A model generated the notes under the pieces. It made no database searches. It was given only the letters and a program-made list of their open reading frames with translations, and was not told the origin of the DNA. Shown in pieces: positions 15,059 through 45,120 of a stretch of 64,000 nt of DNA (positions are counted from its first letter, which is position 1; every line of letters begins with the position of its first letter). The DNA is from Tubiluchus corallicola (lineage: Eukaryota > Animalia > Priapulida): the NCBI GenBank assembly GCA_030141605.1, contig JAQGDQ010000401.1, positions 1 to 64,000 of the forward strand, in the 5' to 3' direction. Both the position numbers and the translations under genes were made by a program.

Positions 15059-17342
15059 GTAAGCATTTGTAACGTTTACTTATTTTTATTTATTAGTATT
15101 TAATGAAAGAGTACAAAAAGAGTACATGTTTCAAATATAAAATTTATTTACACTTAATTATTGTTACCGTAAATAATGAAAGAGAAACCGAAATTGTTTA
15201 AATTGTTTACTCTTCAACAAGTGTAAACACTTGAAAGTGTAAGTGGGCTAATATGTTCATATGAAAACAAGGTGATCTCAGAATCGACTCGCAGTTATAA
15301 TTATAGTCTTTGCCTTCTTTTTGTCCTCATCAGTGTGATGCAAAGAAGCTAAAAAAACACAAAGCACAAAACCACTATATATATATATCACCACTTCAAA
15401 AGTTTTGTGCTTTTTTAACTATTTTCGTTATATTTATATGTATGTACGGCCATTTGTTTCAGCCTGTGTGAATCTTTTGTCAAGGGTAACCTATTTTTCT
15501 CTTGTTTTTCTTCTCTTTCTTCTATTTCTCTCTTCTCTAGCTCTTCGTTTATGGTTCCTATGGCTACGGAGGCGGGTCCCATGGTTACGGAGGACATCTT
15601 GGGGGGTACGGAGGAGGACACCGCAAAGGATACGGTTATCATAATGGAATTCATAAAGGTTACCTCGGCAAAGTGAAGGGTAACCGCCACTCAAGTATGT
15701 CTATATCTAAAATATATCGGAAGGTTTCCAACTTAGTCATTTTCAAAAATTTTCTCGTGATCGAATAATATAGAGATATAGAGAACTGATTTTCCGTACC
15801 ACCGTCCCTTAAATGGTAATGTGTACATGAACTAGAAACACTGCGCTCTATCAATATTAACTTGATAACAATTGCATTCAATTATATGCCAAAGTTTTCC
15901 ATTGACTTCGTTTTAAGTGCTTTGAGAATTTTCAAATTCTATTATTTGTTGACAAATCTTTTAGCTAAATCTTACAAGTATCATGGGAAACGATGCGGTT
16001 ACGGCATACGAATATACGGGGGTTATGGAGGACACCGCAAATACGGCTACGGCAGCCACAAGAGTGGAGGTCATGGTATCCTCTTTAAAGCGAGCGACTT
16101 AGCTGGGGTAAGTCTTCCGAGGTTTTGTTTTACGTTTATTTGTTAATTATCTTTCTATTGTTTTCCGAACCTAGACAATCCACACAAAACCCATACAAAC
16201 TCATACAAAATTTCTTTTCCTAAAACTACTTACACCTTCCTTCTGATGTAGATGCATGTAGATTGCTTAGCATCTGCCCTTTAGTATTTGTTCCGCATTA
16301 GGCTTTCCCTTAGATATGGTAATGTCGAGGAACTTTTCATTCATGAGGATGGCCTCTCCCTAAAAGAAAATCATTTTCATGCAGTTGACAAGCAAATCCA
16401 AAAGAAAATGACCTCCTTGGAATGGACCCCGAAAGAAAATAATATTGCTAGGGATAGTTTCACACGGACGGGGTGGGGAAACATCAGTTCGCAGAGGTAG
16501 CAGTCTCATTAATGTTTGCAAAATTCCTTCTCTTAAAACCTGTGTGAAACGAAAATAAGAAATCACCGTGTTCACTAACTAGGTTAAAACCAAATCAATC
16601 AATTTAGATTATTTACATAAAAAAAGAATCGAATAGTGCTCACCAAATTAATCCAGAGTAAACTGCCTTTCTGTGATGTATCAGCTTTTCTTACTCAACC
16701 TGTATTTTATTCTGTACCAACTTGAGCACCAACATTTTTCGTTACAGTTTCAAGATTTCGTTTTTCCTAGAGGACATATTTTTCTGTTAGAGATATATAG
16801 AGTCTGTCTTGCTCTAACAGGGAAAGCGATAAGATGGGAGGAGGTTTTCTTCAAAGAGCAGTTCAATCAGTAATAGCCTGTATATGTATTTTGATAAAAT
16901 TTTATTTATTATCATTATAATTATCTCAATTTTGTTTTCGATGTTTTTTGGTGTTTTTGCATTGTTTCGTTCATTGCAGGGCTATGGCAACTGTCATGGA
17001 GGCTATGGCGGTTATGGTGGTCATCACGGTGGTTATGGTGGTTATGGCGGTTATGGTGGCGGTTACGGGCATGGTGGTTATGGAGGCCATGGAGGAGGAT
17101 ATGGAGGTCACGGAGGCGGTTATGGAGGCCATGGAGGAGACTATGGAGGTCACGGAGGAGGTCATGGAAGCCATGGAGGAGGTTATGGAAGTCATGGGGG
17201 TGGCTACGGAGGCCATGGTGGTGGTTATGGAGGCCATAGCAGTGGCCATGGAGGTCATGGTGGAGGATACGGAGGTCACACGGGTGGCTATACTTCGTAT
17301 GGCCATGGTGGAGGTGGCTATAGCAATGGCGGATACCATTAA
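15008..17342 (+). CDS. Secreted Gly/Tyr/His-rich protein (~236 aa); join(15008..15058,15541..15694,15965..16107,16980..17342)
   Basis: Four exons with GT-AG introns whose phases (0,1,0) join into one open frame: MKTFLFSVVALASFSTT/LFVYGSYGYGGGSHGYGGHLGGYGGGHRKGYGYH.../TKSYKYHGKRCGYG...LAG/GYGNCHGGY..(GGHGGGY)x10..GGYH*. Hydrophobic N-terminal signal peptide. Confidence 0.88.
15541..15694 (+). CDS. Gly/Tyr/His-rich protein, coding exon 2
   Basis: Strong polypyrimidine acceptor ..TCTTCTCTAG, GYGG-rich frame, donor GTATGT (phase 1). Confidence 0.88.
15965..16107 (+). CDS. Gly/Tyr/His-rich protein, coding exon 3
   Basis: Acceptor CTTTTAG, phase-1 entry, YGGYGGHRKYGYG, donor GTAAGT (phase 0). Confidence 0.85.
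16980..17342 (+). CDS. Gly/Tyr/His-rich protein, last exon with (GGHGGGY)x10
   Basis: Acceptor TTGCAG, phase 0. 21-nt repeats at 17082-17291 vary mostly at synonymous positions. TAA stop at 17340-17342. Confidence 0.92.
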   Translation, partial: GYGNCHGGYGGYGGHHGGYGGYGGYGGGYGHGGYGGHGGGYGGHGGGYGGHGGDYGGHGGGHGSHGGGYGSHGGGYGGHGGGYGGHSSGHGGHGGGYGGHTGGYTSYGHGGGGYSNGGYH

Positions 17343-20725: not shown

Positions 20726-22012
20726 TTTCTAAACTATCATCGCTAGGCTAGGAGTACTCGTTTAGAAATTGTTGAGTAAATTTAGTCCAGAAAATCAACA
20801 AAATAAGCACAGCGTCCTAAGCATTTTACAGTAAAAATTATATGTCAAGGTGATAAATAGTTTACAAAAATTTTAATGTGATTTAACCTTTACTACAGAT
20901 AATATAATGTCAGTTTAGGGAATAGATCGAGATGCCTTTTCTAAATAAATCTACTGACTTAGCCATAAAATGCCGGACTTTATTAACAAAGTTAAAAAAT
21001 AACTATAGAAAATGCTAAGTGTATAGGAACTTTCGACCCATACCATAAAAAATTGAATCATTTAAATAATTTTTAAATTTTAATTGAAAATAGTTCAACT
21101 ACAAGCATTTCGTAGACAATTTCATTGTTCAAAATATCTGAACGTATATAAAAATATAGTACTAGTTGCTGTCAATTTTTAGCAAGTTTATACAGAATTA
21201 AAAAAATCTGCATCATTGTTATAGTACTAATGTAATTTTTGCTGTAACGGTTCTACTATTTGCGACGGATCTGTGATATTGTTATAAGAGCAGTTTAGTA
21301 GACATTTAGTTAGAGACACAACAGCAAGAAAATGAATAAAAATTACTAGATAATCATAGAAAGGATATTACCTTTTAATATCATTGACTAAATTACAAAT
21401 TTAGCTAAACTATAAATTTATAAATAATAATTATAAATTAATTAAGTATAAATTATTAATTTAACAATTATAAATTATAAATATATGATTGCTAATTTAT
21501 AAATTTTACAGTTTGCAATAGCAATCAATGCCACAACAATTAATGCAATGACAAATGAACACAATAATAATAATAAAGGCTGTAGTTAGTGGTAATGGAC
21601 TAGTGATATCATATAGTAACGATGATGACGATTATAAAAACTGAAGCGACACTGTCTTTTGACGGCGAACTATATTAATTTTACCCAAAACTATCATATT
21701 CTGTTGCTAAAACACACAAAAATGCTCACGAAAACTTATTTGTTTCAACAGAAGTAATTTAATGAGCAGTAACTGCTGATTGTTAAAAACTGAACAAAGC
21801 TACGTCAAGTCTTTGCTGTAATTTAGTAAACACTAGCGTAGTCGCCTGGCCCACCATTGTGTCGTTCATAAGCGATGCGCTAGTGCGTTCAATTTGCTGC
21901 CGAGAAAAAAGACGAAGACTATTTAACTATTCAGGTTCGCGATAATTCTTACAATGCGCAACATCAAAAACGCGTTTTAAATCGCACGTGTAAGTCTTAT
22001 ACTGCATACGGT

Positions 22013-22357
22013 CCTATACTTTTTGAAATTTTACTTTTGATCATGTCTATGTGCGGTTTCCAATCCATGTGTTCGTTAAGAATGATTCCCAAAAATTTCA
22101 TTTCTTGAATGATTTTAATAGGGGAATTATTGATTTTAATATCATCATTATTAATTGGAATTTTCTTGTGTCTTGCTCTAAAAATGATACATTTAGTTTT
22201 TGTAGAATTTAATGACAACTTATTCGTTTTGAACCAAATACTGAAATAGCAATATTTTGTAATTCACGGTTGATATATGTTAAATTATCAGCCTTATTTA
22301 ACTCAAACAATATGCTCGTATCATCTGCAAACTGAAACAGATTTGGGATATCTAAAG
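22013..22357 (-). mobile_element. CR1/L2-group LINE, piece 3 (RT C-terminal part: FADD..LNSTKTKCIIF..KFLGIILNEHMDWKPHI)
   Basis: ORFs 22209..22436 and 21997..22218 contain LFQFADDTSI and KFLGIIL..WKPHI motifs; continues piece 2 across the 22358-23291 insertion. Confidence 0.9.
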
Positions 22358-23291
22358 TGTTGCGAGCCGAGTGGACCACTGAGCCAAGTAGACCAATTGT
22401 AGACCGCGGTCTACTTGGGCTGCCCAAGTAGGACACTAGAGACAGGTCGCGAATTGAGTCGTTAAGTGTACTGACACCGTCCGTTGTGCTTGTTTTGTAA
22501 TAATAATAATTAAAAACGTTAGTACACGTTGAATAATTTATTATACATCTAATAAAATAAAAGAATTTTATTCTGAGTTGGTAGAACGGACAATATTAAA
22601 TTTGGTTTCGATATTAATGTTGTTGAAGTGAAAAAAACCCACTTTTTTTGCGAATTCAACATTTGTTTAAGGTATATCATTTTTGATTTTGTCTCACTTC
22701 ACAAACAGGTGATCCGTTTCACTACCTCTTGGGCAAATAATTGTTTTCTTATAAGTAAACGTTCTAGCGATCTATGTGTCCTACATGGGCTAGCGAGCCA
22801 TGTAGGACAGTGCCCTACATGTTACAATACTACTGATAATATTAAAACTAATTATCCTTGCTTTTCTTAAATGTTAAAAATTACTTTTTGGTGTTGTGAA
22901 GGCTTAGCAGCATCTGTCTCATTTTTAAATTTGCAATTATTTCTGTAATAACTGTGTGCAGAATTTCGCTCTTTAAAGCATTAGATACTAGGTTTAATGT
23001 TATGATATATTAATGGAGTTAATCATAATGATGAAATTATTGTAAGAAATGCATTTGTAAATTGCCAAGGAATATCAATTTCTAAAAGAAATTTTGTTTT
23101 ATGCTTTATTATGTCATAACAATACTTATAAACAATGGTAATATAAACTGGAAAACAGTTTTGCCAGAGCAAGTTTCTCGACAAAAATCGCTAGTGTCCT
23201 ACTTGGGCTGCCCATGTAGGACACTACTTTTAGCGCATCGGTTTTACCGGAAGTGGTCTACTTGGCTCCTTGGTCCACTCGGCTCCCTACA
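22358..23291. mobile_element. Non-autonomous DNA transposon, TGT..ACA ends, ~38-bp TIR, 5-bp TSD TAAAG (Ginger2/TDD-like)
   Basis: Left TGTTGCGAGCCGAGTGGACCACTGAGCCAAGTAGACCA; revcomp of right TGTAGGGAGCCGAGTGGACCAAGGAGCCAAGTAGACCA. TAAAG at 22353-22357 and 23292-23296. Interrupts the LINE RT between YIND and FADD. Confidence 0.85.
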
Positions 23292-23679
23292 TAAAGAAAT
23301 GTTTTTATGTCATTTATATATATTAAAAATATCAGTGGACCTAAAGTTGAGCCTTGTGGTACTCCACAGGTTATAGCAGCTTCATTTGAAATTATATTAT
23401 TATATCGAATCAGTTGTGTTCTCCCATGAAGATAACTAGATATCCATGGTGTTTGCTCTCCCTCTAAGACTGTAATGATATAGTTAGCTAGAAGTATTTT
23501 ATGATTAACAGTATCAAAGGCCTTAGACAGGTCACAAAATATCCCTACTGCTACTTTATTTTGTTCAATGCATTTAGTTATACTCTCTACAATGATTATC
23601 AAAGCCAATTCGGTTGAGCCGTTTTCCGAGAACCAAACTGCTTATTGTTAATGTTTTGATCATCCAAATAAGATAATAT
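23292..23679 (-). mobile_element. CR1/L2-group LINE, piece 2 (RT core)
   Basis: SYLDDQNINNKQFGSRK..GIFCDLSKAFDTVNHKILL..WISSYLHGRTQ..CGVPQGSTLGPLIFLIYINDI. Confidence 0.93.
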
Positions 23680-24778
23680 TAGGGTGGCTGACGCGTGGTG
23701 CCATGTTGTGGGAGACGAAGGTAGAACATTATTTTCTGGCATATTTCGGTTATCAGTTTTCAAACAATATGAAAGTAAATTAAAAATCAAATTAATACAG
23801 TTAAACTACTGTTATCGGTCTTTTATCTGCCGAAATTTAATTTTCCATACTTTCCTAAGTTTTGAGCAGGAAACTTGTGAAATTGTCAAAAACGGCTTTA
23901 CTGCAATCGATCCGTCAGCGTGACATCAAAAATGGCGCCGATTTAAAGACTACAATGGGTATTTTCAAATCAATTTGCAGCCCGGACTAACAGCTTTATT
24001 TTCGATATTATCAGCCTTACCTGGGTAAAAAAGATCTGCAAATTACTTTAAAACCCGAGCCACAATTAAATTACAACATTTTGTCCGTCAAAATAGCGTA
24101 TCTTTTACACGCACTGCGGTATTAAGCCTTCAAAGAGTGAAAATCTTATTGGCTCGCATCTAAAAATATTCTTAAATGTCTTATCTTAAATTCTAAAACA
24201 CGTTTTGATTGGATAAAATAAGTTAGTCCGGGCCGCATTTAGCCATATAAAAGAACTGTTTTGTAAAGAGAAGTCTCTCTGCTGCTTTCCGCTGATTGGC
24301 TCAGGGTGTATGAGTCATGGTACAGCCTGAAAAATCAAAGCGCTTTGCAATTGGTTGCTGCAAGTAAAGAACTTTTAGATGGATGCATCTCCTGAAGCGC
24401 TTACTGGTGAAGCTAGAACAAAGAAGTAGTGACACTATCTACTCCATTCATAATTCTGGTGAGTTGTAAACACTTTAAGCGACGTGATTTAGAACGTGCC
24501 TGGGATTGTGTTAGTGTTTACTGTAGTTACCCTATTTTTCTGTAGTTGTGTTTCCGCTGTTTCCTTATAATTCTCTACCGCTCTTCTTAGTGTAATGTGA
24601 TATCATTTTTTTATTTCAGTGATCAAAGTTGTTACTATTAACTATTAATTTATCTGTGTAATTACAATAATTTATTTTAGTGTCGAGGTTTTTGAAATTA
24701 AAACTATATAAAAGTGGGCTGTGCATGTTACTGATTTTAAGTGATCGTAGACTACGACAGTGTTACTAGATCATACAA

Positions 24779-27700
24779 ATGGACAAGGTAATAGCTTCAT
24801 TTCCTCTCTGGGCTTCCTTTTTTCAAACTGGGGAAATTAAAAGTGGTTCTGAACTGGATAGTGTTTTGCATTCAAAGTCTCTGACCTGGACTAATATTTT
24901 CGAATTATTAAAATTAGTAGATAGCCTAGAAAATGCAAATTTGTTGGATTTCCTGTCTTTTGGCATTTCCAAACCAACAAAAGCCAGGGTACTTGCAAAA
25001 GCACTATGCAGTTTGGGTATTAATGTAGGGTGGGCTTTAGATTTAATCGAAGACACAAGTCCTGCTGCCACACGAACATTGTACACAAAAGTGAAAATTT
25101 TTCGAAAAATGTCAGAAAATGCAAAAGACAAGGTTGTGGCAGCAGTGTTTAGTGCCTTGCCTTGCACAAGTAGTGGCAGTGCTAGTGGAAGTGCATCAGA
25201 TTTTCAGTGCACATCACTACAACCAAGCAAGCCAAAGTTTGAATCTATGTACTGCAATAAAATTGGGTTGTCTGTAGAAGAAATTTTGAGTTGCGCAGGT
25301 GGAAGTAAGTTTGAGAGTTCCTCACAAACTCAATCAAAATTTTCTGTAGATCAGCTTAGTAAGGGAGTTGCTTGGGAAGTGTACACTGCTTGTGCTAAAA
25401 ACACAAAAAAATTCAAAAATGTGTTAGTAGCCCTTTTTGGCTGTGAAGAGAAAGACGTTTCGCTTCCAAAACTCAAAAATAGACTCTACCGTATGCATAT
25501 GCTAATGAAAAAAACAAAAAATCCAAGGCCACATTATGCTGCTTGAAAAAGCCTTTCTTAGGCCAGGATGAACAGATAACAGCCAATATTTCAAATGTTA
25601 GTTCTAGTTCGTCTACTGATGTTACAGTCCACAAGAAGCGAATCGCATTTCTTGAAAAACAGAAAGGGGTTTCAAATGCAGCTTATAATGTAGAAACAGA
25701 GAGCTTAAAAAATTATATGGCTCAGCTTGAAAAGAGGTTAGAAGCCATTTCTTTGCTGAAAAAGAACGCACGGTGTAAGAAATTGACAAATGCGGCAAAT
25801 CTGAAACTGGTTGGTAGCACAAAGAATTTGAAAAAGAAATTGACGAGAAGAAATTCCAAAATTGGAAAACAGAAAAACATCATTGAAGATTTGAAAAAGC
25901 AGTGGGAAGCATGTTTTGCAGAAAATCTCAACCTGAAAGAAAAATTGTCTGAGTTTTGAAAGTAGCAAAAAAGCGATGGAGAATGAAGTGCTTGGTAGAG
26001 AAACTTTATTAAAACGAGCCGAGGAGAAAGAAGCAGAGTTACGGTCTCACATTGATGCATTATTGAAAAGTCGTGGAAAACAATACAAAAAAGTTCTTAC
26101 TACAAGAAAAAGCTTCAGAGAATAAAACAAAAAAATTCAACGACAGTTATTTTGAGATATTACAAAAAATTTTGTTAGATTTAGCTAAGCTTTATGTTTT
26201 AAATGTAGATGAACAAAAACAGTGGGCAGATAGATTTATTTCAAAAATTAAGAATACAATGAGTGATCGGCATATTGTGAATAAAAAGTTGAACAGTCTT
26301 ATACAAGAATATAGGGATGGGGTGCTTCCAAATGTCATCAGGGGATATGAAAGAATGACCACAATTGAAAAAGAGTCTTGTCACAAAATGAACAACTTTT
26401 TTGTATTTTATTGTAGGTCTAGGCACTCAAGCCGATGCTGCCCTGAATGTTTGGGAGAAATGCATTTTTGGTGAAGATCTGGTCGGGTGTGCTAAAGTAG
26501 GCTGTTTTCCTAAAGCAAATGAAAGTGGAACAACTAGGCTAGTAAGCTCAGTTTGCAAAGCTGTTGGACCCAGGGCATGTGAAAAGTCAGAAGAACAAGA
26601 ACAGTTTGCAACATTTTTAGGGGTTGAGTCGGACATTAGTAAATTTCCTTTGGCATCTTTCAGGGGCAACAGGGTAAATATTTTTTTTCATTTACTTCCT
26701 ATATCCTAGCTTGATAAATTTTTTTGCTGAACACTCTAACGAAAATAAGTTAATGAATGCAGTAGAAGCAGATCTTGGTGTGTCAGTTTATAAATCAGGT
26801 TGCCGAGTATTAGGAATAATTGACAAGGTAGTAACTTCGCCATTGTGGCGCATGCTAAATTCTGTTGAGCACATTTATAATATGAATGATGTTTACCAGC
26901 AATTGCAGAATGAGTTACGGGAGTGAGCAGTTGATTCCAGTGAGCTTTTAAATGGTGATGCTAGGTTGTTTGGAAAAATGGGACAGTGGGACGGTATATC
27001 AGAAAAGCTGTTCCAAGTCAATGAATTGACATGCAAACAAAGCAGGCCTTAGAAGTGATATGTGCAGGATTTTTGGTTGTTGTAAAATGCATGGTAACAG
27101 ATCATTTGCCTGGATGATGCCATACAGAGTATAGTGAACAGGATGAGTTAGCTACTGCCTCTGTTCCTAGTACTAATGTTAGTGCTGAAAGGGATTTTGG
27201 AATGTTGGATCGGATAATGAGAGAAAAACCGAATGCCACCACTATCACGATTGAAGGATTAATAATGTATAAGCAGAATAAGACAGCAGATTGGTTAGAT
27301 AGTAAATCAGAAGATGAGCGTAAGAATTTATTAGAGTGGGCTGCTAAGTCAGTGAAGCATCAGAGAGAAGAATTTGTAGCCTGACGAAGAGAAGTGCAAA
27401 TGAGGAAGCAACTGAAACGAATGCAACACAGGGAAAGTAAACTAGTGAAAGAACGAGTAGAACAAGCAAAGAAAGAAAAATTAAGTAGGGAATTATTCAG
27501 CATAGGAGGACTATGGGATAGTGAAGAAGCTGTTCAAATAAATTTGTCAAGGTACAGTTCTTCAAATACCAAGCTATGTGCATTGAGAACACAAATTTGA
27601 TACAGAAAAGTAGTTTTAGGACAAGATAGTGTTAGAAAACTGTTTAAATTTGTCTTCAGGTCAGCAAAAATTTAGTGCAGAGAAACTAGCCACCAACTTA

Positions 27701-28337
27701 AAAAAAGCAATCAGGCAATCTCGGCAGTTATTAGATAGCATCTATGGTAGCAATGAAATAAGTGCTTATTCTATAGCAGCAAAATCTGAAATAGAACAAA
27801 TCAATAGTCAATTTTTAACAGACAGCAATCTGGAAGAGGGGAAGAGCACACAAAACAGATGCAGAATAGCAGGTGACGGTAGTCTTCGCAATGACATAGA
27901 TCCTCGAAGATTGCTAGGTAGAAGAGTGAAGCACCTCTGTTATGAAAATGATAAGGAAGAATGGTACGAAGGTGTTATAGTCAAGGTAGGAAACAGATAT
28001 GGGGTAAGATATGATGGTTACAAGGAAATTTTGTCTGTGGGGAATGGCTGACTTAAGAGAAGACATAGAAAAGGGTGAGCTAGTTGAAATAGAGCTAGAA
28101 GCAGCCCATTTAGTGGGAAAAAGCATACAGAATTTATAGATTGATGAGGATAGTGGTGAAGAGATTTGGTACAGAGGTAGAATAGTAGAAAGGGATGGGA
28201 ATGTATTCAGTGTTGTTTTTCAAGGAGATGAGGACAAGGAAGATGAGGAGGTAGACAAAGATTACTACACCAAAGAATACTGTGAAAAATTACCTGTTTT
28301 GGAAAACTATAATAAATTTGAACTCAGAATTCTGTAA
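24779..28337 (+). pseudogene. Disrupted hAT-like DDE transposase with coiled-coil N-terminal region and C-terminal tandem Spindlin/Tudor-like repeats
   Basis: Collinear ORF pieces 24779-25546, 25543-25959, 26073-26474, 26401-26709, 26711-26926, 27202-27384, 27394-27600, 27629-28051 and ~28037-28337. Motifs NTMSDRH (2nd Asp), FRGNRVNIFF and PSTNVSAERDFG (catalytic Glu / hAT C-terminal motif). Many stops and frameshifts. Confidence 0.8.
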
Positions 28338-29124
28338 AAAAACAACTGCAGATTAATAATTTTGAATTAAATTTTGAAACAAAAATACAAATTCTCATCA
28401 TCATTCTCCAAGGCAATTCAAAAAATTTAACAGCTTTCTATTAAATTGCTAAAACCAATGAAAAAAAAAATTGAAAGTAAATATCACTATTTATGTTCAT
28501 TTTTTATAACTTTTCCGAAATACAAATGACATCATCGGGCTTGTTGTCAGCACTGTCAATTTAAAATAAGCTTCATCAATCTGCTCATCTCTCATACTGT
28601 TAGTTATGTAATAGTTTTAAAATGTGTGACCTGAATTATACAAATGACAAAGGCTCTTGCATTTTAGGAACACTTTTAAATACTTAGTGAAAGCAAGCAG
28701 TGTTGAAATGGTTCTCTTACTCTGAAGTTTGATGTACTCCCTTGTGTTTCAGGCAACCAAAGCAGTGTACATCTTCTATCATGTGCAAACTGAACTGAAC
28801 AAATGACGAGGCTCTTGCTTTTCAGATGCACATTGAATAAAAATGATGTGTAATTGGAACTATACTCAAGGTACTTGTGCTCTTCTAAGCCCATCCCAAA
28901 CATTTTCCCTTCCAGATGTGTGCTTGAACTGTACAAATGACCTAAGGCTCTTGCTTTTTAGGTACACATTGAGCAAAAGTGTGTTATTACCTTTAATTAG
29001 TTGTTTAAGCGCACACGAACATTGTGTTTAAATGTGTATACTCAAGTGCGTAATCTAGAATTTTTACTAGCCCTTCACTCTAATAGTTCAGTGATTCAAA
29101 ATGAGAGTTTGTATTATATCATTC

Positions 29125-29290
29125 GTCCTGGGTTGTGTGATCGAGTGGTTTAGATTTTAGATTGCAAGCATGCAGTCTTGAGTTCAATACTAGCGGCTGC
29201 CAATGCCGGGGCATATAACCTACACGACGTATGCAATTTGTCTGTTAAATGAGTTCAATAAATCTTTTCTTTGTCTTTTTGTCTTTGTCC
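29125..29290 (+). mobile_element. tRNA-derived SINE nested inside the hAT-like element
   Basis: GTCC start, TGATCGAGTGG (A box), GAGTTCAATAC (B box), AATAAA followed by a (TTGTCT)-like tail. Confidence 0.55.
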
Positions 29291-31749
29291 CTGGCATTTA
29301 ATAGTCACTAACATTGAGTTTTTCAGCATCTTGCATACACAACTGAAACTACGGTCTGTGGAGTGTTGTATATATAGCCATAGCCATGTATTTACATAAG
29401 AGGCTAAAGTATAGGCAGATATTTTGTGTCATAAAAGTATTATGGTGGCAATGTCACTTCTTAACTCAAAAGCAAAAAATATGCCATTTGACTTTATTAA
29501 TTAGATAAAAATCTTGCACAGAATTTTTTGTAAAGATCTTAACACTTATTACTACAAATAGCAAATGACATCAAAGTATCTGCCAAAGTTTGTCATAATT
29601 TCATAAATGGCTCTTGTTTTAGTTTTGTTCAATAATAATTCTATTGATGTAAAAAATTGTTACATTTTTAGGTTTAAATTGGCTAAGAAATCACTGAAAA
29701 ATACAAAAAAGTGAACTTTGTTGTCAAATTTTAATGCAAAATTAACAAAAGGTTGATACGTTGAATTTTTGAGATACAGACAGCATTTGTCCAAGCCATC
29801 TTTAGTGAATTGAAAAAAGAATAATTTTATACTGTTGTTAAAGTTTTTTCTGAACCCCTAAATCCTAAATCTTAGCATTTGAATTTAGGGTCTGTTCGTT
29901 TTTTGCATTGTAAAAATAAATTAGAAGGGGGAATGTGCAAATATATTAAATGTTGTTATTTGGCATTCTGTATGTTGCCTACTTATAAATAAAACCTGAA
30001 GGGCCATTTAAAAATCAATTTTCACTTTATGTCATAAATTGTGTATTACCATAATATATATTCCTCTTCAGTCACATTAGTATTTATATTAATTCGAAAC
30101 TTGTCTTTTCTAGGTTTCTACAACTGTTGTGCTTGCTGTACATCTTACTTATGATCCTAGTCAATCAACAAAAGGCATCCACTATATTTTCTAAAAGAAG
30201 AAAATATTATCAAGAATATGAATTTGCTGTACATAAGATCAATTTTAAATTACATAGGCCTTTTAACATTTTCCTTGGTGCTTATAATATGTAATTTGAG
30301 GCAAAATTAGCAGATTCGTCATAGAAGCATCTTTAGAGTTTTTGTAAAAAGTAAATTTATTATTGTCTTTTTCTGTAATAGTTGCGTTACAGTATAAATA
30401 TCTCTGATATTATGTAACTAAGTTTGTCATTTATAATAAATTTATTTTGCATTGTTACTGAACTAAGTTTTTCCTATTTTTTTAATTTTGTGTATTTTGT
30501 GCTTGCATACCTTGCAATAACATACAAAATAGAAATATATACCTGTAAAAGCTGATTCACAGTTGAACAAAATTCCAGAAGTCAGGACTAAATGGATAAT
30601 CAAAATCTGCTTGGACAATAAACAACATGTGTCTTTAATTATGTAGGGAGCAACGATTAATTACATGCACCTGGAAATCGAAACTGCAGACTTATGGTGC
30701 ATCCTGCTTGTTCATCTTGTATCATTTCTTCGGGCATTAACTACCTAACGTAGAAAAGGTAATTTAGAAAAATCTAGGAATCTGAGAAAAGATAACAATT
30801 AGCAAGTCAAATTATAAAATAAAACATTTATCGATTAGATGTGTCAGGTAAAGGTAATTAAGGTTTTCTAGTAATAAGGGTGACACATCTAGTGCTGTAA
30901 ATGCTTTCTATTTGATAACAAGTCTTGACTACCAAAGTGCATTATCATAAATTATACGTTGGTTAACATTTAGATTATACTATACAATAATACATGTAAC
31001 AAAAATATCAATTAGGCATGCCTGGAAAAGGATAACAATATATTAAAACAGGTGTAATCAAGGCAGTGCACATACTATGACAAAAGATTAAAGATACAAA
31101 GTATTATTTTGAAAAAAACTTTAATAAAAGTTCACTCAGATCGGTTCTACAAAGAGTTAATTAACACGTTGCCATGACAACAGGATGTCTTCATCCCAGA
31201 TTTTTTACCTGCGCAAGATGAAAACATGGACTTGGCAATAAACACACAAAAATCTCTTCAATGACTGTGCAACCAACTAAATTCCACTTTCTCAAACGAA
31301 TACTTTTCATATTGCAAATTCTGTAATGTTAATGAAAATGCTGTTTTCCCAGTTTTTCCCGTAAAAATTTTTCCTAGCATAAATCTGAAGGTGCGTAGTG
31401 TTTATGAATATCTGTTCTATGTACACTGAGCTACCAAAAGTCATATTAACAATTAACTACCAGCTGAATTGGCACCTTTTATAACACTCTAAAGTTGACA
31501 AGTTAGCGAACTTTCGTAAAAGGTCCATTTTCACACCTGTTAAGATAAAAAATCATTTGGATCAATTTAGTCATTTTTTGTTGCTCCTAAAATGCGAGCG
31601 TTTTTCTTAACTTTAACTGCCCGCGATTTCAAAACAAACTAATTGTTTTAAATCTGGTTTTTTTAATTAACTATATGCTCAAAGCACTATCAAATGACCA
31701 CGCTTGCGGCTATGATGGCGCGCTCTACAATTTTTGTTCAGCCACCATA

Positions 31750-33714
31750 ATAATATTTTATTGTAAACAAACTGTAAGGTAACAGCACGATAGGTCTATA
31801 ATTATTAATGTCGAGAGAATCCTTGGATTTGAAGATAGGAATGATAATTGACCCTTTTAATTTAGAAGGAACAGTGCCAGTTTTAAGTGAATTATTAATT
31901 GTGTGTCAAAGGGGTAATGATAGTTTCAATTACATCTATAATATCTTTGGGGCGCAAATTATCCCTACCATTATTTCGATCAAATGACTTGCATATACTT
32001 ATAATATCAGATTCCGTGACTGGTGTAAAGAAAACTGCAGAAGGATAATTGCCTTTTAAATAAGTTTCATAGTTGATATTAACATTTTCTATATTATCAG
32101 CTACTTTTTGTCCAATCTGCAAAAAATGGTCATTAAAATGATTTACTATAGATTTAGGATCTGTGATTAATTTATTATTAATTTTTAAACGAATTAAGGA
32201 CTGTTCGCACATGGAATACATAATTTCTTTCATAATTCCCCATGTTTTCTTTAAATTGGCTTTAACACCGTTTAGCTTATTTTGATAATAAGTCGATTTA
32301 GCATTTTTAATAATATTATTTAATTTATTGCGATATTGCTTATACTCGGTCCCAGCTGAGTCTGAGGTTTGTTTGATTAATGAATCACACATTTTAATTT
32401 TGCACTTGATACTGGTTAATATGGTTGGAGTTATCCAAGAATTTTTTATGACATTAGTTTTCTTGGAAGCTTCAGTAGTTTTTATATTTTTAAAGTAAGC
32501 TTCGTTAAATTTATCCAGAAATAGATTGTAAGCTGCTTCAGGATCTGAAGTACTACAATTCCTCCCAGTTAATTGATTCTATATCACTTCTTAATTTATT
32601 TTTTACATGGTTATTGTATATTACTTTGTCGATATTATTAGTTTGAAATTTTGCTATGTTTAAATCAATAATTAAGAAAATTGGTAAGTGATCGGTGACA
32701 TCTACTAAGAGACTCCCAGCTCTATACTGATGCTGTATAACGTTTGTTAGAATATTTTCAATTAATGTAGAGCTATATGCTGTAATTCGAGTAGGATAAG
32801 TAATAACTGGAAAAACATAATTAGTAATAACAGTATCAAGAAACTCAGCCATGTCTTGAAAAACATAATTAGTAATAACAGTATCAAGAAACTCAGCCAT
32901 GTCTTGGTGCGAAGAGTGATTTAATAAATTCAAATTGTAGTCCCCTAACAAAAATAACTGGTTATTTTGTTGATTTATTATTGATAGTTTAGTACTTAAC
33001 TGTTCAATAAATGTTTGTGGGTTTTGCCTGGGTGGTCTGTAGATCACGCTGACTACTATGTTTTTGCCTTTAACTTTATAAATTTCAATAAAAATACTTT
33101 CAAGGTCAGAACTGCTTGATGTTAAGTCGTTTCTTAATACAAAGGGTATGTCTGATTTAATGCCCTACGCCAACCCCCTTTTTATTCTTCCTATTTCTAT
33201 TCACCAGAGTATATCCAGGTAAATTAAACATTCTTTCTGTGTCTTCATTTAACCATGTTTCAGTTAGCACAATTAGTGAGAATTGAATTTGTAACATTTG
33301 CAGCACTGCAGTTAAGTGGCCATAATTAGCAGATAAACTTCTTATATTCAATGGATCATTGATAATTTGTTGTTGATATTTATGTTTTAAAGCACAGACA
33401 AAAATTGCTCATTGTCGTAGTATTTATTTTTTGGAAAAGAATCTTTTTGATTGAAAAAGTGTATATCAGGATCAATATCCTCTAATGGCAAATTTGCGTT
33501 CACACTATTTAGTGTTTTGAAAAGATCTAAATTATACTGATTGTTAAAATTATAGAATCATGTAGAATTAAAGCAGACCAACAGGCATAATATGCACCAT
33601 ATTCCCAGAACAGTATAGGTTTTTAGGCGTTGTAATTCCAGATTAAGATTATTCATTACTTACAACCGCCAACACGCAAGAAGCTCCACGTGAATAGCTG
33701 TGTTTTTACACACT
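31750..33714 (-). mobile_element. CR1/L2-group (Crack/Daphne-like) LINE, piece 1: 5' end, APE endonuclease, linker, RT start
   Basis: EDIDPDIHFF..KYY, NIRSL..IVLTETWL, IYRPP..LLGDYNLNLL, PTRIT..STLI, VTDHLPIF, YKQYRNKLNNIIKNAK..TWG, GTVPSKLK..IIPIFK..NYRPI; frameshifted. Confidence 0.92.
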
Positions 33715-39800: not shown

Positions 39801-42800
39801 GCTACTCAGCAAAAGAAGTTGCCAACGGTCAACGCCGAAGCAGCGTGGCTTACAGCAAAGTTCAGTATGGAATATCTGTGCGCAACGTTGCCGCTTCTTG
39901 ACATTCTTATTGACTTCCCGCATTGAGGCACAGGAGTAAAACAACAGGCAGTTAATGTTCTAATGTAATATTTTTCACTATAATATAATAAAAAACCACG
40001 ATCGTTCATTAGTTGGTCAATGATCAATCATAGAAATGAGACCGATTCCCAACACTAGAAAGTAGCCTATGTAAATTTTCTAACTGTTTAGCTCCTCTAG
40101 CCTGTTGCATGATAAACATGATAACCATATTAATGATAACTGGAACTACGCTAGCCAAAATAACTTTCCATATTTAACATGTTCAAACTTAGTGTAATCA
40201 ACACAACAAGCATTACTGTTACAAGATAACGTTGCATGACTGCTAGTTAGGAAAATAGGGACTTACTGGTACTGGCACCATATCAGTGTTTTTGCATGGT
40301 ACAGTATACACTGTCCACATAGCTCCAACAGCAGAGTGCTCCTTCAAGCGATGTCAAACACTTACAGAGTCTACAGGTTATTCCTTCTTTGTATTCCATG
40401 GGAAAATCCGATCTGATGGTGCAAGCTCATAGCTTGTGTCTCTGTACGGAAAGATCAAGGAATGTTGGTCATCTGGGGGAAAATGACAGTCACACTGTGA
40501 CTGAAGCAAAACATTTCTTTATTCGTTTCACAAACTTTAATAGATTATTTTAACAAAGCTTAAGCGTGTGTCATAGACAGGGATCAACTTTGCACCTGTT
40601 CTGTCTATCACAGGTGACCAACAGTAGTTGCCTACTTTGAACAGTTATGAATGTCGCCTGGTAGGCAGCTAGCACCATCTAGTAGTGAAAATACAAATAT
40701 GTTACAGCAGACTGTCACAAAGAACCCGTGTAGGAATGGTTGTCACAGTACTCCATTCTTTAGTGGACCCGATGGAAAGTGAAAATGCATCTTAGGTGCT
40801 TGAGATTGTATGTGTATGCCCAATGATCAGTGGGTAAAGTTTTAGTCGTGTCTGCATGCGAGTAGGACAGTAAACACACTTTTATCTTCACTTTGTCTAT
40901 ATTATGTATATTTGATTACCTGTTTGTTATATTTGTTTTCTTAATAGGTCCGAACAGTTTTACGGGAGAAGATTGCTGCGAATTCCATGTGCACGGTGGC
41001 ACCGCTGTTGTACGAGCAGTCATGGAAGCCATTGCTTCTCTATCTGATACCAAATATGCCGAAGCTGGAGAATTTACTAAAAGGTTGGGAGTTAATCTTA
41101 AATGCTATGAGCATTGCATAAACTCACCCATTGTTTTGACATTGGACAACTAAAACTACTCAAGTTAGCCAACTCTCGCAGTTTTTTGGCAAATCTTTTA
41201 GGCTGCTTAACTTTAATGTTATTGATATTGCTTGTTTAATTAGTAACTTTTGAATAGGAACAGGTTGCTACCTAAGTCATCAATCATTGTCCATTGTTGT
41301 GGAGCTTTGTTTGCATTTGATTTGGCTTTTGTTTGCTTTCATAATGGATTGCATTCGAGAGTTGGGCGGAAAGTTTCGGCTTTCAGACATAGTGAAATCT
41401 CAGTTTCATTATATTATAAAAATTAGTTAATGCAAATTTACATTGCACAGCATTCTAAAAATGCTAACAATTTTGTTGTGTAGTGATGAAATAAATTGTA
41501 ACAAGCATTTCTGATTGTACATGCAACATGCATAATGGGTAGTTTAGATGAATAATGATGACGGTGAGTAATCTTTAGTGCAAAGTTAAGTACTATTGGA
41601 TCTGGTTAATACCTGGATCTGTGACATGGTCAAACATCTATTTGCATGTTGATTTCAGGGCATTTATCAATGGAAAACTGGATTTGACTGAAGTGGAAGG
41701 ACTGGCGGATCTTATTCATGCGGAAACAGAAGCGCAGCGCAGGCAGGCACTGCGACAGTTAGATGGTGCTCTCAGCAACTTGTATTCGTCTTGGAGAAAA
41801 AAATTATTAAAGGTGATAAATTTATTAAGACTATACAAAGTATACTTTTCATTAAACCTATGGGATACAAAAAGGGGCCTCAATAGTATTTCCTTCTTTG
41901 AAATAACTATTGCCAATTTCTGGTTCACATGTCACTCTTTGGAGTTGACTCAGTTATGTTTTAATTCAATGTCAGTGAACAAACATTTCAAGCCAAGAAC
42001 TGCCACAGTTACACTGAACATTTATATTGGCTGCAAAATTACACAAAAGCAACAGCTAACTCACTATATCACTAACGATCCTATTAACACTGAAACAAGA
42101 ACTGTGGTTTTCTGTTAGGCCATTCAGGTTTTAGGTTGTCCGACTTGTAAGAATCGGGGAAAAATTTGCTGCTTGCTTTTGGTGGTATATGTTTTTGAGA
42201 GGAAACCTGACGTCTCTTGTCTTTTTTTGTAGGCTTTAGCGCATGTTGAAGCTTATATTGATTTCAGTGAAGAGGACAATATTGAGAGTGGTGTTCTCGA
42301 TAATGGTGTGTACCTAAGCAAATCATCTCTGTTTAATTAAAGGAAAGTAATGTAATTTCATTACGTACATAATTTCTTGTAACTTTTAGTTATTACTTGT
42401 TTACTTAATCATCATATAATTTATATAAGCATATTTTGTTTGTCAAACATATGAAATTAAATTGTGTTTTAGTTGCTACAGACTAAAACACTTACTCTGA
42501 ATGCTTATAGCAAACACTTTTCTTGTGTTTTTTTCATGACTTTTTAGAATTTCTTACAGATTAGATATATTGACATTCATTATAGCTAGCGTTGCTGTTC
42601 GTAACTTGCTGATGGAAGTAGAAAGCCACTTGCAGGACAGTCGACAAGGTGAGCGATTACGGAGTGGAGTTCATGTTGCGATTGTTGGACGACCCAATGT
42701 AGGAAAGAGTAGCCTAATGAATTATATTTGTAAGTATGTGATATAAATTGTTGTATTAGCATATCAGTTATGATAATATCTATTATTCATACAGTCGCTT

Positions 42801-45120
42801 AACTCAGCTTTATTGATTTGTAATGTACAATCTTTACAAGAAAACACTCCTTTCATATTAGAGAATGACTATGCTAGAAAAAGTGTGTGTTCTTCTTATA
42901 AATAGGAATAAAAATGAGTGAGTAGCAAATATTGTTCAATATTAAATGCAGACGTGTCTGTTATGTTTTAGACATGGTAGGCTTGAATCTGGCCAGGCAG
43001 GGCTTACTTAATTTTGATGGCTGTGGCAGAATAGGAGCCTCATTATCAAGGCTGATCTCTTAAGGTGAGGCACTGAATCAGCAGTGGTGTCTTAGCACAT
43101 TCACATGCGTATATAATTTCTCACCTTGAGGTAAACAGCTGGACTCGTATGATAGATGAAACTGTCTAAAAGAAGTTTTTGTATCCGTCACTTCCTGATT
43201 TGTTACTACCTCAATTAATGCCAGAATTGTCATTGTCTCAGTTAGGCTATTCATTATACTGTCATCCTTGATACCAAATGCTCTTCTTGCTTTTCTAAAA
43301 GTGTTTGCATGTCAGTCCATAAAATTAACGACGTCGATAAAATTAACTTACAGAAATGATTGTGTTCCAAATCATACATTTCCCTCCCTAGTTGGAAATC
43401 TACTGGCTCAGTAAACTCTTGTAATAACATTTTGTATTTCAACTGCATATTCATTTTGTCATTTTTACTACAGTTGATTTTAAATTATCTACATTATATA
43501 ATCATAGGTCAGCGTCCAGCCGCGATTGTTTCACCCATAGCCGGCACAACAAGAGACGTGGTGGAGTCTGCATACAACATTGATGGATACCCTGTGGTTA
43601 TCTGTGACACTGCAGGCGTGCGCAATTCCCGTAATGTCGTGGAGCAGGAAGGTGTGGCCAGAGCTAAGAGAAGGTAAGTTTGGGCTTGCAGTGTCAAAAG
43701 TCGATTTCATAAGTGATTCATTTATGTTAAGAATTAATTCAGGTGTGTCAGATTTTGATATCCTTTTGTTTTTGCTGTATCTGCTATGTTTGTCATGTCT
43801 ATAGTTGTACATTCATATTTTTAGCATTGCAAAGCTTTTTGTGTTTCTAATTTAATGTTCGAAACTTGCGGGAGTTAAATTTAGCACATATTTCTAATCC
43901 TAGAAACTCAATTTTCCTACTATTGACTGTTTGTATGCATATTAATGCTTTTTAGAGCTGAGTCGGCTGACCTGGTACTGGTTGTTATCGACGTTACAGA
44001 ACTTGAGGCATCTGCGAATCCAACAGAATACATCTTAACTCTCTTCACTGAACTTGGCCTGCGGAGTGTGGCAGACTTCGCAGAAGCGCAGACAAGCAAA
44101 CCGGGATGGCAGAGTATACATCGTCGTCCACCTGTTGCAGAAGTACACAATCAGGATACTTCCAAATTGTCAGACGACGAATTGTTGCGGGACTGCCATT
44201 TCCTTCTAGAACCTTCCCCAGAGTCTCTTCCTAGGCATGTCGTGTGTGATGTCAATTCTTCTTCCAGTGCTAATAAAAACGAAAATCTCAAGAAGCATAG
44301 AGACAGTGCGGACAACGAACGAATACCAGTTATTTTAGTGCTAAATAAGTGTGACCTTGTGCTTGATGAAGGTGCATTAAGATGGCAGGGCTTTTTGTCG
44401 GACGTGTGCCACACTTGTGTTGTGTCTTGCCTTACTGATGATGGTCTTTCAGCTTTTATGGATGTCTTTAAAGAGGAAGTGAAAATTCTGTAAGTCTGTA
44501 CCAGAAATTTCGTATTGTATGCATTCTTTTCAATTATATTGATGTTCAAGTAAGTGTTGCTGAGCATAAATGCCAGTGTTTCATTAAACATGCATATAAT
44601 CAAGAGTAAATACATTTAAGATTGTAATTGAAAAGTATTTTCTAAATAGCATGTTCTTCCTCTTATCACTACATTATAATGATTATATTTAGTTTGTTCT
44701 TAGTTTTTGTTATTTACTGACTTACAATATTTGAAATTGATCGAGTTTTTGCTAGCAACGGAAAATATTCTGAATTATTTTGCACAAGACCTTTTACCAG
44801 TGATATTCTGCTCCACCCATGTGTTAAGCTGGCAAATCAAACTCGCAAAAATTCAAGTGGATAAGTAACACATGAATATGTTTTTATTAAGGTGTGGTAA
44901 CCCACTCGTTGGGACTCCCTCGTTTACCCAGTCTCGTCATCGCCACCATCTTATGAGATGTGCTTACCATCTTCAACGGTTTTTGCGAGGACACGGAGAT
45001 CTGGTGCTCAGTGCCCAAGAACTTCGTCAAGCATCTAGACAACTTGGTAAAATAACAGGTAGGGTAACATCCGAGGAGATACTGGATGTCATCTTTAGAG
45101 ACTTCTGTGTGGGAAAGTGA
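36708..45120 (+). CDS. GTPBP3: tRNA modification GTPase GTPBP3/MnmE, mitochondrial (573 aa); join(36708..36847,39297..39442,40948..41083,41659..41812,42233..42305,42586..42729,43508..43673,43956..44489,44892..45120)
   Basis: All nine exons are GT-AG bounded and phase-compatible (1722 nt). TrmE_N motifs [18 protein letters not shown] and SFTGED..EFHVHGG; helical domain [24 protein letters not shown]; G1 [10 protein letters not shown]2 GTTRD, G3 DTAG, G4 NKCD; C-terminal FCVGK; Arg/Ser-rich N-terminal presequence. Confidence 0.96.
38574..38700 (+). mobile_element. pogo/Tigger-type MITE end in GTPBP3 intron 1
   Basis: TA|CAGTAAATCCTCGCTTAAC terminus with TCGCTT(T)AATGACG subterminal repeats; partner end not found. 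Confidence 0.5.
39297..39442 (+). CDS. GTPBP3: GTPBP3 exon 2
   Basis: [18 protein letters not shown]; TTACAG acceptor, GTGAGA donor. Confidence 0.93.
40948..41083 (+). CDS. GTPBP3: GTPBP3 exon 3
   Basis: [26 protein letters not shown]. Confidence 0.95.
41659..41812 (+). CDS. GTPBP3: GTPBP3 exon 4
   Basis: [41 protein letters not shown]. Confidence 0.95.
42233..42305 (+). CDS. GTPBP3: GTPBP3 exon 5
   Basis: [24 protein letters not shown]. Confidence 0.93.
42586..42729 (+). CDS. GTPBP3: GTPBP3 exon 6 (P-loop)
   Basis: [27 protein letters not shown]; GTAAGT donor. Confidence 0.94.
43508..43673 (+). CDS. GTPBP3: GTPBP3 exon 7
   Basis: [36 protein letters not shown]. Confidence 0.95.
43956..44489 (+). 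CDS. GTPBP3: GTPBP3 exon 8 (with long G3-G4 insertion)
   Basis: [12 protein letters not shown]....[18 protein letters not shown]; GTAAGT donor. Confidence 0.9.
44892..45120 (+). CDS. GTPBP3: GTPBP3 exon 9 (last)
   Basis: [45 protein letters not shown]. Confidence 0.95.

Follow-up and report, generated by a model that had tools for sequence, protein, structure and literature searches.

Chromatin-reader-guided integration is established for Gypsy retrotransposons. According to the available text of Grau-Bove et al., reader-transposon fusions mostly involve chromo and PHD domains, and hAT-chromodomain fusions come from one sponge, Ephydatia (bioRxiv 10.1101/2021.11.30.470311); the main text, in the form available, has no word starting with 'spin', and its Supplementary Table 6 could list a fusion of the kind considered here. 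A Tudor domain is carried by Gypsy-10_Ec32 of the brown alga Ectocarpus, which the available text of a 2025 paper presents as the first reported transposable element with such a domain (PMC12477816). Among cut-and-paste enzymes, the CxxH motif is common to hAT, Kolobok, P, MuDR and Dada, and hence is not hAT-specific (PMC3706591), and the hATx-6 transposase combines an N-terminal BED finger with a PF05699 match (PMC8721813). In SPIN1, as described in the accessible part of the structural study, the H3K4me3 pocket is formed by F141, W151, Y170 and Y177, and D184 holds H3R2 and adds about 90-fold to H3 binding (PMC3967050). Among titles and abstracts, with most subscription journals and Repbase Reports outside the search, we found no published fusion of a spindlin or Spin/Ssty repeat to a transposase. 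A decayed copy of an element of this kind lies in the 64,000-nucleotide stretch of Tubiluchus corallicola DNA analysed here (assembly GCA_030141605.1, contig JAQGDQ010000401.1; hereafter the window), and its intact relatives carry the fusion in a single protein.

By locating where homology to other genomic copies stops, we delimited an 8,070-bp cut-and-paste element at 23680-31749 (Table 1), inserted in a minus-strand LINE that has its endonuclease frames right of the element and its reverse-transcriptase frames left of it. The two decayed LINE parts on either side occupy window positions 21900-23679 and 31750-33500 (minus strand), and LINE copies on contigs C265 and C1301 supply the empty site, joining both flanks with an 8-base overlap. 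The terminal inverted repeats pair at 12 of 12 bases in most other copies of the element. An exact 7-bp duplication borders six of nine same-contig end pairs, including the pair in the window, and an 8-bp duplication borders none; the remainder comprise one N-masked pair and two with no matching duplication. The target 7-mers of the family lean to CTAnTAG. A blind inverted-repeat scan of 22500-30500 returned no ends, because the right end is outside the scanned range.

Table 1. Parts of the element in the window and lesions of its transposase gene
Feature	Position in window	Strand	Remarks
Left target-site duplication, ATAATAT, 7 bp	23673..23679	+	Identical 7-mer at 31750-31756
Left terminal inverted repeat, TAGGGTGGCTGA, 12 bp, element 5' end	23680..23691	+	Many copies start here, with unrelated flanks
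Left subterminal region	23680..24396	+	Common to abundant non-autonomous copies
Broken 5' part of transposase: N-terminal helical region and coiled coil	24770..26137	+	Weak colinear match to family N-termini, 8-10 bits
Internal-deletion junction	26137..26156	+	About 1 kb present in both C1572 copies is missing
Broken catalytic core: second Asp (MSDRH), frameshifted CxxH place, insertion domain with FRGNR	26142..27027	+	
Catalytic Glu motif, PSTNVSAERDFG	27166..27201	+	Glu codon 27187
C-terminal helical domain and linker	27202..27910	+	Stops 27382, 27598; frameshift ~27620-27640
Spin/Ssty-like Tudor repeat 1 (LLGRRVKH...)	27911..28091	+	One-base frameshift ~28029-28031
Spin/Ssty-like Tudor repeat 2, with acidic loop insert	28110..28337	+	Premature TAG 28137; natural stop TAA 28335-28337
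Right terminal inverted repeat, element 3' end	31738..31749	-	Matches left repeat at 11/12 bases
Right target-site duplication, ATAATAT, 7 bp	31750..31756	+	Same 7-mer as left copy

In the T. corallicola genome the family consists mostly of 3-4-kb non-autonomous copies, one of which, when translated, has a longest frame of at most 115 residues. We found no intact autonomous coding copy in this genome and three decayed coding copies, these counts being lower bounds. The two coding copies other than that in the window lie on contig C1572 (about 85,800-103,000) as a tandem duplication roughly 12 kb apart and 95-99% identical; both carry the same internal deletions, and element ends were not found for them. 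Deletion derivatives that join window position 26080 to 29909 occur on C2105 (2,663,080-2,670,545) and C1532 (517,045-519,217), and on C2105 a plus-strand non-autonomous copy adjoins the minus-strand deletion derivative. The 3' part of the element also contains a repeat of about 100 bp (window ~29120-29225) with at least 35 matches elsewhere, SINE-like by its size. The observed/expected CpG ratio is 1.05 in the left subterminal region versus 0.38 in the coding part, and this region is a possible promoter. Beyond the element, the window holds exon-like frames at 41579-44490 (plus strand) that we take, by motif, to encode an MnmE/GTPBP3-type tRNA-modification GTPase, and an open frame at 16833-17339 (plus strand) for a glycine-rich GGY/GGH-repeat peptide following a hydrophobic stretch, possibly a secreted glycine-rich protein.

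An earlier sequence-only reading of the window had noted a catalytic-Glu motif near 27166 and two similar units at the C-terminal end, the first with one frameshift and the second with one stop. These features are present as quoted: PSTNVSAERDFG begins at 27166, the units span 27911-28337, and their lesions fall at ~28029-28031 and at the TAG at 28137. That the reading frame ends in the two units stands in part, the units being in place but the frame being broken three more times between the Glu motif and unit 1, by TGA codons at 27382 and 27598 and by the frameshift at ~27620-27640. Repeat 1 of the window copy contains an extra base that both C1572 copies lack, and the TAG in repeat 2 is TGG in both. 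Contigs from sequencing runs X1 and X2 are identical to the window across 27954-28076 and 28047-28219/28228, and a second variant without the extra base is present in runs X1, X2 and X4 (runs X1-X3 represent one sample, possibly the source of the assembly). Assembly error as the cause of the repeat 1 frameshift and the repeat 2 stop is excluded by these lesion-matching contigs. The stretch of about 1 kb deleted from the window copy contains the first catalytic Asp motif (DGTSK). Given its stops, frameshifts and this deletion, the window copy is dead and cannot by itself show a fusion. It is colinear in three frames with residues 32-468 of P0001, an intact Priapulus protein of 468 aa that is its closest intact relative (54%, 38% and 39% identity; combined E 4e-106), and a profile of the family finds the two units in place (E 1e-15 and 3e-12); a pairwise comparison of the N-terminal frame with P0087 was not significant. 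The window copy is the dead relic of a hAT-type element whose transposase ends in doubled Spin/Ssty repeats.

The fusion itself is carried by the relatives. A search with P0001 at an E limit of 0.001 gave 1,366 cluster representatives, and the best 150 of these 1,366 included named proteins from priapulid, annelid, bivalve, sea urchin, sea cucumber, amphioxus, gar and sturgeon. Of 155 relatives, 73 carry a single repeat, 15 carry two and 67 lack it, counts that are biased upward since the query carried repeats and the best 150 of 1,366 matches were used. Most of the 67 repeat-less relatives are short or end early, and of the 88 relatives in which 245 or more residues follow the Glu region, 80 have a repeat. 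In 74 of the 88 repeat-bearing relatives, at most 10 residues lie between the repeat and the C-terminus. Forty of the 105 rows of alignment A1 keep D, D, C, H and E (4 with two repeats, 24 with one and 12 with none), and the D-D-CxxH-E set and two repeats occur together in one full-length chain in P0159, P0162 (sea urchin), P0167 (gar) and P0004. The sequence-only reading had proposed a fusion and named a separate ORF or a captured fragment as the alternative; homologues from several animals (priapulid, sea cucumbers, sea urchin, gar and sturgeon) carry the arrangement in a single chain, and in intact homologues the fusion is real. It is not peculiar to the window element, being usual among the relatives that we examined.

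In a midpoint-rooted tree of 99 sequences built on the shared region, the two-repeat proteins included form one clade with P0001 (support 0.96). With this rooting, the repeat distribution suggests that the ancestor probably had a single repeat, which doubled once and was apparently lost at least once. Six of the 12 catalytically complete repeat-less proteins fall in one tree group, the base of which carries no support value. The repeat may therefore be dispensable, or may in these proteins lie on an exon missed by the gene call; if the loss is real, the repeat-less group may provide natural controls for the function of the tail. Long transposases ending without a repeat include P0029, P0030, P0038, P0041, P0059, P0061 and their kin. 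We also noted that P0009 (RXM95170.1, Acipenser ruthenus), annotated as 'Spindlin-W', consists of the C-terminal half of a family transposase with two repeats; the annotation is likely a mislabel, and could mislead studies of fish spindlins or sex-linked genes.

For the enzyme, the alignment and the predicted fold both point to hAT, in line with the hAT-like assignment made from the sequence. In the non-gap rows of alignment A1, D212 is invariant (42 of 42) and D285 (57 of 58), C329 (65 of 66), H332 (66 of 67) and E599 (98 of 101) are nearly so, which gives the family a DDE triad with CxxH after the second Asp, of which the window copy has lost the first Asp. When a model of full-length P0159 (mean pLDDT 87.7) was searched with Foldseek, ranks 1-10 were Hermes structures (best E 1.6e-6), followed by Spindlins, and the superposition on Hermes reached Z 15.0 with an rmsd of 4.0 A over 349 residues. 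The family has RF where Hermes, as we take it, has RW. On these models the enzyme is predicted to work like a hAT transposase. A single-sequence search of P0001 against the PDB gave no match at E up to 10, and none of the 155 proteins, many of them partial, had a Pfam match to a BED finger or the PF05699 dimerisation domain. ESM Atlas feature scores were below 0.9 and are leads only. Two amphioxus relatives encoded on separate scaffolds share 99.5% identity across 1,171 residues, which suggests recent movement of the family in that lineage.

Within hAT, for which Repbase allows target duplications of 5-8 bp, the 7-bp duplication (with 8 bp at none of the nine end pairs) excludes the canonical 8-bp groups (Ac/Buster/hATx). 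It points to hATw, which we take to be the Repbase hAT group with 7-bp duplications; on this definition, the placement is a lead only. We dropped a KolobokP-like structure, which we take to have long direct repeats, as the ends here are inverted repeats with a 7-bp duplication. The RepeatMasker class DNA/hAT-hATw appears, in the available text of one study, for an amphioxus element (PMC12905397). Dada, whose elements lack terminal inverted repeats, insert in small RNA genes and encode zinc fingers at both ends (PMC3706591), was ruled out by the presence of inverted repeats and by the LINE target.

The assignment of the units to the Spin/Ssty type was borne out by the family profile and by the predicted fold. 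Profile A2 (38 members) matched Spindlin-1 at E 4.2e-30, with the next Tudor family at 0.063, and a profile of 11 two-repeat members alone matched Spindlin at E 5e-19. For the model of P0001 (pLDDT 82.8, pTM 0.44), the top Foldseek matches were Spindlins, a result that goes against the case, raised in the earlier reading, of no Tudor or Spindlin fold being predicted. Spindlin-4 was the top VIA match (Z 8.7, rmsd 1.6 A over 61 residues, or one repeat), followed by a plant Tudor domain at Z 7.5; by modelled fold alone, Spindlin and plant Tudor are divided only narrowly. When both repeats were superposed on Spindlin together, the rmsd rose to about 13 A, and a Spindlin-like packing of the pair is not predicted, the low pTM leaving the inter-domain geometry uncertain. 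A Pfam check, which the earlier reading had suggested, came out divided. The window units themselves stay below threshold, matching Agenet at E 0.003-0.016 (under the cut-off) and Tudor_5 also sub-threshold, with no Spin-Ssty match at E up to 1, but the Spin-Ssty (PF02513) cut-off is passed by 8 of the 155 relatives, all with a single repeat, and by none of the 15 two-repeat proteins.

How far the aromatic cage is kept varies across the family. Of 83 complete repeats, 27 share the Y170-D184 spacing of SPIN1, and at the sites of F141, W151, Y170 and Y177 these are aromatic in 22, 24, 27 and 17 cases, respectively; all four sites are aromatic in 11 of the 27 and at least three in 25 (background 7%). 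In the other 56, insertions or deletions leave the fourth cage position uncertain. An Asp occupies the D184 position in 75 of the 83. Among two-repeat members all four sites are aromatic in 2 first repeats and 3 second repeats, out of 14 each, the anchor being unreliable near insertions. By hand mapping, the cage sites of window unit 1 read C, Y and Y followed by the frameshift (C in the C1572 copies), and those of unit 2 a stop (W in other copies), Y, F and E, giving two cage aromatics of four in unit 1 and, before the stop arose, three in unit 2, in which Asn also stands at the places of the conserved His and of D184. Because three of the cage positions belong to the core of the beta-barrel, their conservation need not mean ligand binding. 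Judged by these residues, the family looks like a methyl-lysine reader more than the lineage of the window does.

We consider it probable (roughly 0.6) that the tail serves as a tether between the transposase and the methylated nucleosomes of target sites. In such a mechanism the transposase would bind the short inverted repeats, cut, and paste the element into CTAnTAG-like sites that the transposase core would choose, and the C-terminal repeat would dock the enzyme on methyl-lysine nucleosomes, a docking that would bias where or how efficiently the element integrates. The lineage of the window would have doubled an ancestral single repeat, and its two repeats would probably act as two separate, partly redundant pockets and not as an integrated K4me3/R8me2a reader in the manner of SPIN1. 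The analogy to the paired H3K4me3/H3R8me2a pockets of SPIN1, invoked in the sequence-only reading, is weakened because the cages in the window are incomplete, because the modelled repeats do not superpose together on Spindlin, and because the insertion flanks lack GC or CpG enrichment. Thirty-five such flanks (15 left and 20 right, some near-duplicates) had a GC content of 0.345 and a CpG observed/expected ratio of 0.71, versus 0.352 and 0.71 in 108 tiles of the window, the one background used (p 0.58 and 0.94). By this crude test there is no sign of a pull to CpG-rich promoters; flank composition does not address heterochromatin marks.

The same flanks bear on an alternative, which we regard as unlikely, in which the methylated histones (or other methylated protein) read by the repeat are those on the donor element or its promoter and not those at the target. 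The tail would then have helped the transposase to find and excise its own chromatinised copies, or would have protected those copies from silencing. This alternative agrees with the flanks in that they show a DNA-sequence preference and no CpG shift, with the CpG-rich left end of the element (observed/expected 1.05), and with the evasion of host suppression that Grau-Bove et al. suggest, in the text available, for reader-transposon fusions (10.1101/2021.11.30.470311); a crude test on 35 flanks against a one-window background is, however, compatible with target tethering too.

Quite improbable, in our estimate, is that the repeats are Tudor-fold modules that read no methyl mark and serve in protein contact, nucleic-acid binding or the assembly of oligomers. 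Most two-repeat members, like the window element, have an incomplete cage, the His, Trp-x-x-Gly, Tyr and Asp could be kept for the fold alone, and the third repeat of SPIN1 is, in the accessible portion of one report, predicted and cross-linked to bind SPOCD1 (PMC11499256). Set against this are the aromatic residues at the F141 and Y177 sites in 22 and 17 of the 27 well-aligned repeats and the Asp retained in 75 of 83 at the D184 site, whose contribution to H3 binding by SPIN1 is that roughly 90-fold effect (PMC3967050). It is highly improbable that a host spindlin fragment was captured by one element or that the repeats form a separate ORF outside the transposase. That the frame of the window copy is interrupted between the Glu motif and the units would fit, but against both versions stand the single-chain homologues of priapulid, sea cucumbers, sea urchin, gar and sturgeon, which contradict them, and the single clade (support 0.96) of two-repeat members in the tree. 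A Pfam search of the T. corallicola genome for a stand-alone spindlin gave no match, and its control was equally silent.

Returning to the tethering reading, the family that would carry such a reader is also a candidate origin of vertebrate spindlins. Tentatively, on sequence similarity, SPIN1-4 and Ssty may be the domesticated and triplicated C-terminal reader of this hAT transposase family. The repeat occurs on transposases in annelid, mollusc, priapulid, echinoderm, amphioxus and fish records, and a single transposase repeat (P0079) matches all three SPIN1 repeats (E 7e-20). Similarity to spindlin is strongly clade-dependent among the transposases, with three 11-sequence profiles scoring 87, 72 and 25 bits, a spread that an origin of spindlins within the transposase family would predict, and the existence of a two-repeat clade shows that the repeat can multiply. 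The opposite direction, with the repeat captured from an old host gene and unequal rates since, is possible. In the available text of two reports, SPIN1 is present throughout vertebrates (PMC11499256) and acts as a silencer of young transposons (10.64898/2026.08.20.746118); if the proposed origin is true, a domain that arose for steering a transposon now contributes to silencing young ones. Separately, in P0082, P0086, P0115, P0125, P0131, P0136, P0145, P0150, P0152 and P0170 the repeat breaks off after ...(S/N)(Q/K)V and the proteins continue in unrelated sequence, which suggests an intron inside the repeat in the clade of these 10 proteins.

Among the titles and abstracts searched, we found no description of a cut-and-paste family that carries a predicted Spindlin-type reader in several animal phyla. 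The intact members with zero, one and two repeats would allow a direct test of histone-methylation reading by a DNA transposase, and target choice guided by histone methylation would be relevant to transposon biology and to vector design. Genes of the family are also prone to mislabelling, as the sturgeon 'Spindlin-W' illustrates.

Compared with Spindlin-1 to -4 (PF02513; PDB 7E9M, 4MZG, 4UY4), the family has the same repeat type by profile and predicted fold, and single-repeat members largely keep the cage and D184 positions. Spindlin has three repeats in a stand-alone globular protein, whereas the family has one or two on a transposase, and more than two were found in none of the 155 proteins. 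The linker in the family is short (profile envelopes mostly 4-12 residues apart), the predicted packing is different, and the family Trp stands one position before the W151 site, which is itself Tyr or Phe. With Hermes (PDB 4D1Q, 8EDG, 6DWZ, 2BW3) the family shares an RNase H-like core, a helical insertion domain, the residues D, D, CxxH and E, short terminal inverted repeats beginning TAGGG and non-autonomous derivatives. It differs in a 7-bp duplication where 8 bp is usual for hAT, in an identity of about 12% with no sequence-level match, and in having a long coiled coil at the N-terminus and, at the C-terminus, a helical domain that precedes the Spin/Ssty repeats. Like the Gypsy chromodomain integrases, the Ephydatia hAT fusions and Gypsy-10_Ec32, it joins a domain of histone-reader type to an integration enzyme. 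The Ectocarpus element, however, is a retrotransposon, whereas this one is cut-and-paste with a different class of reader, and the sponge fusions involve a chromodomain and are taxonomically restricted, whereas the Spin/Ssty fusion spans several phyla.
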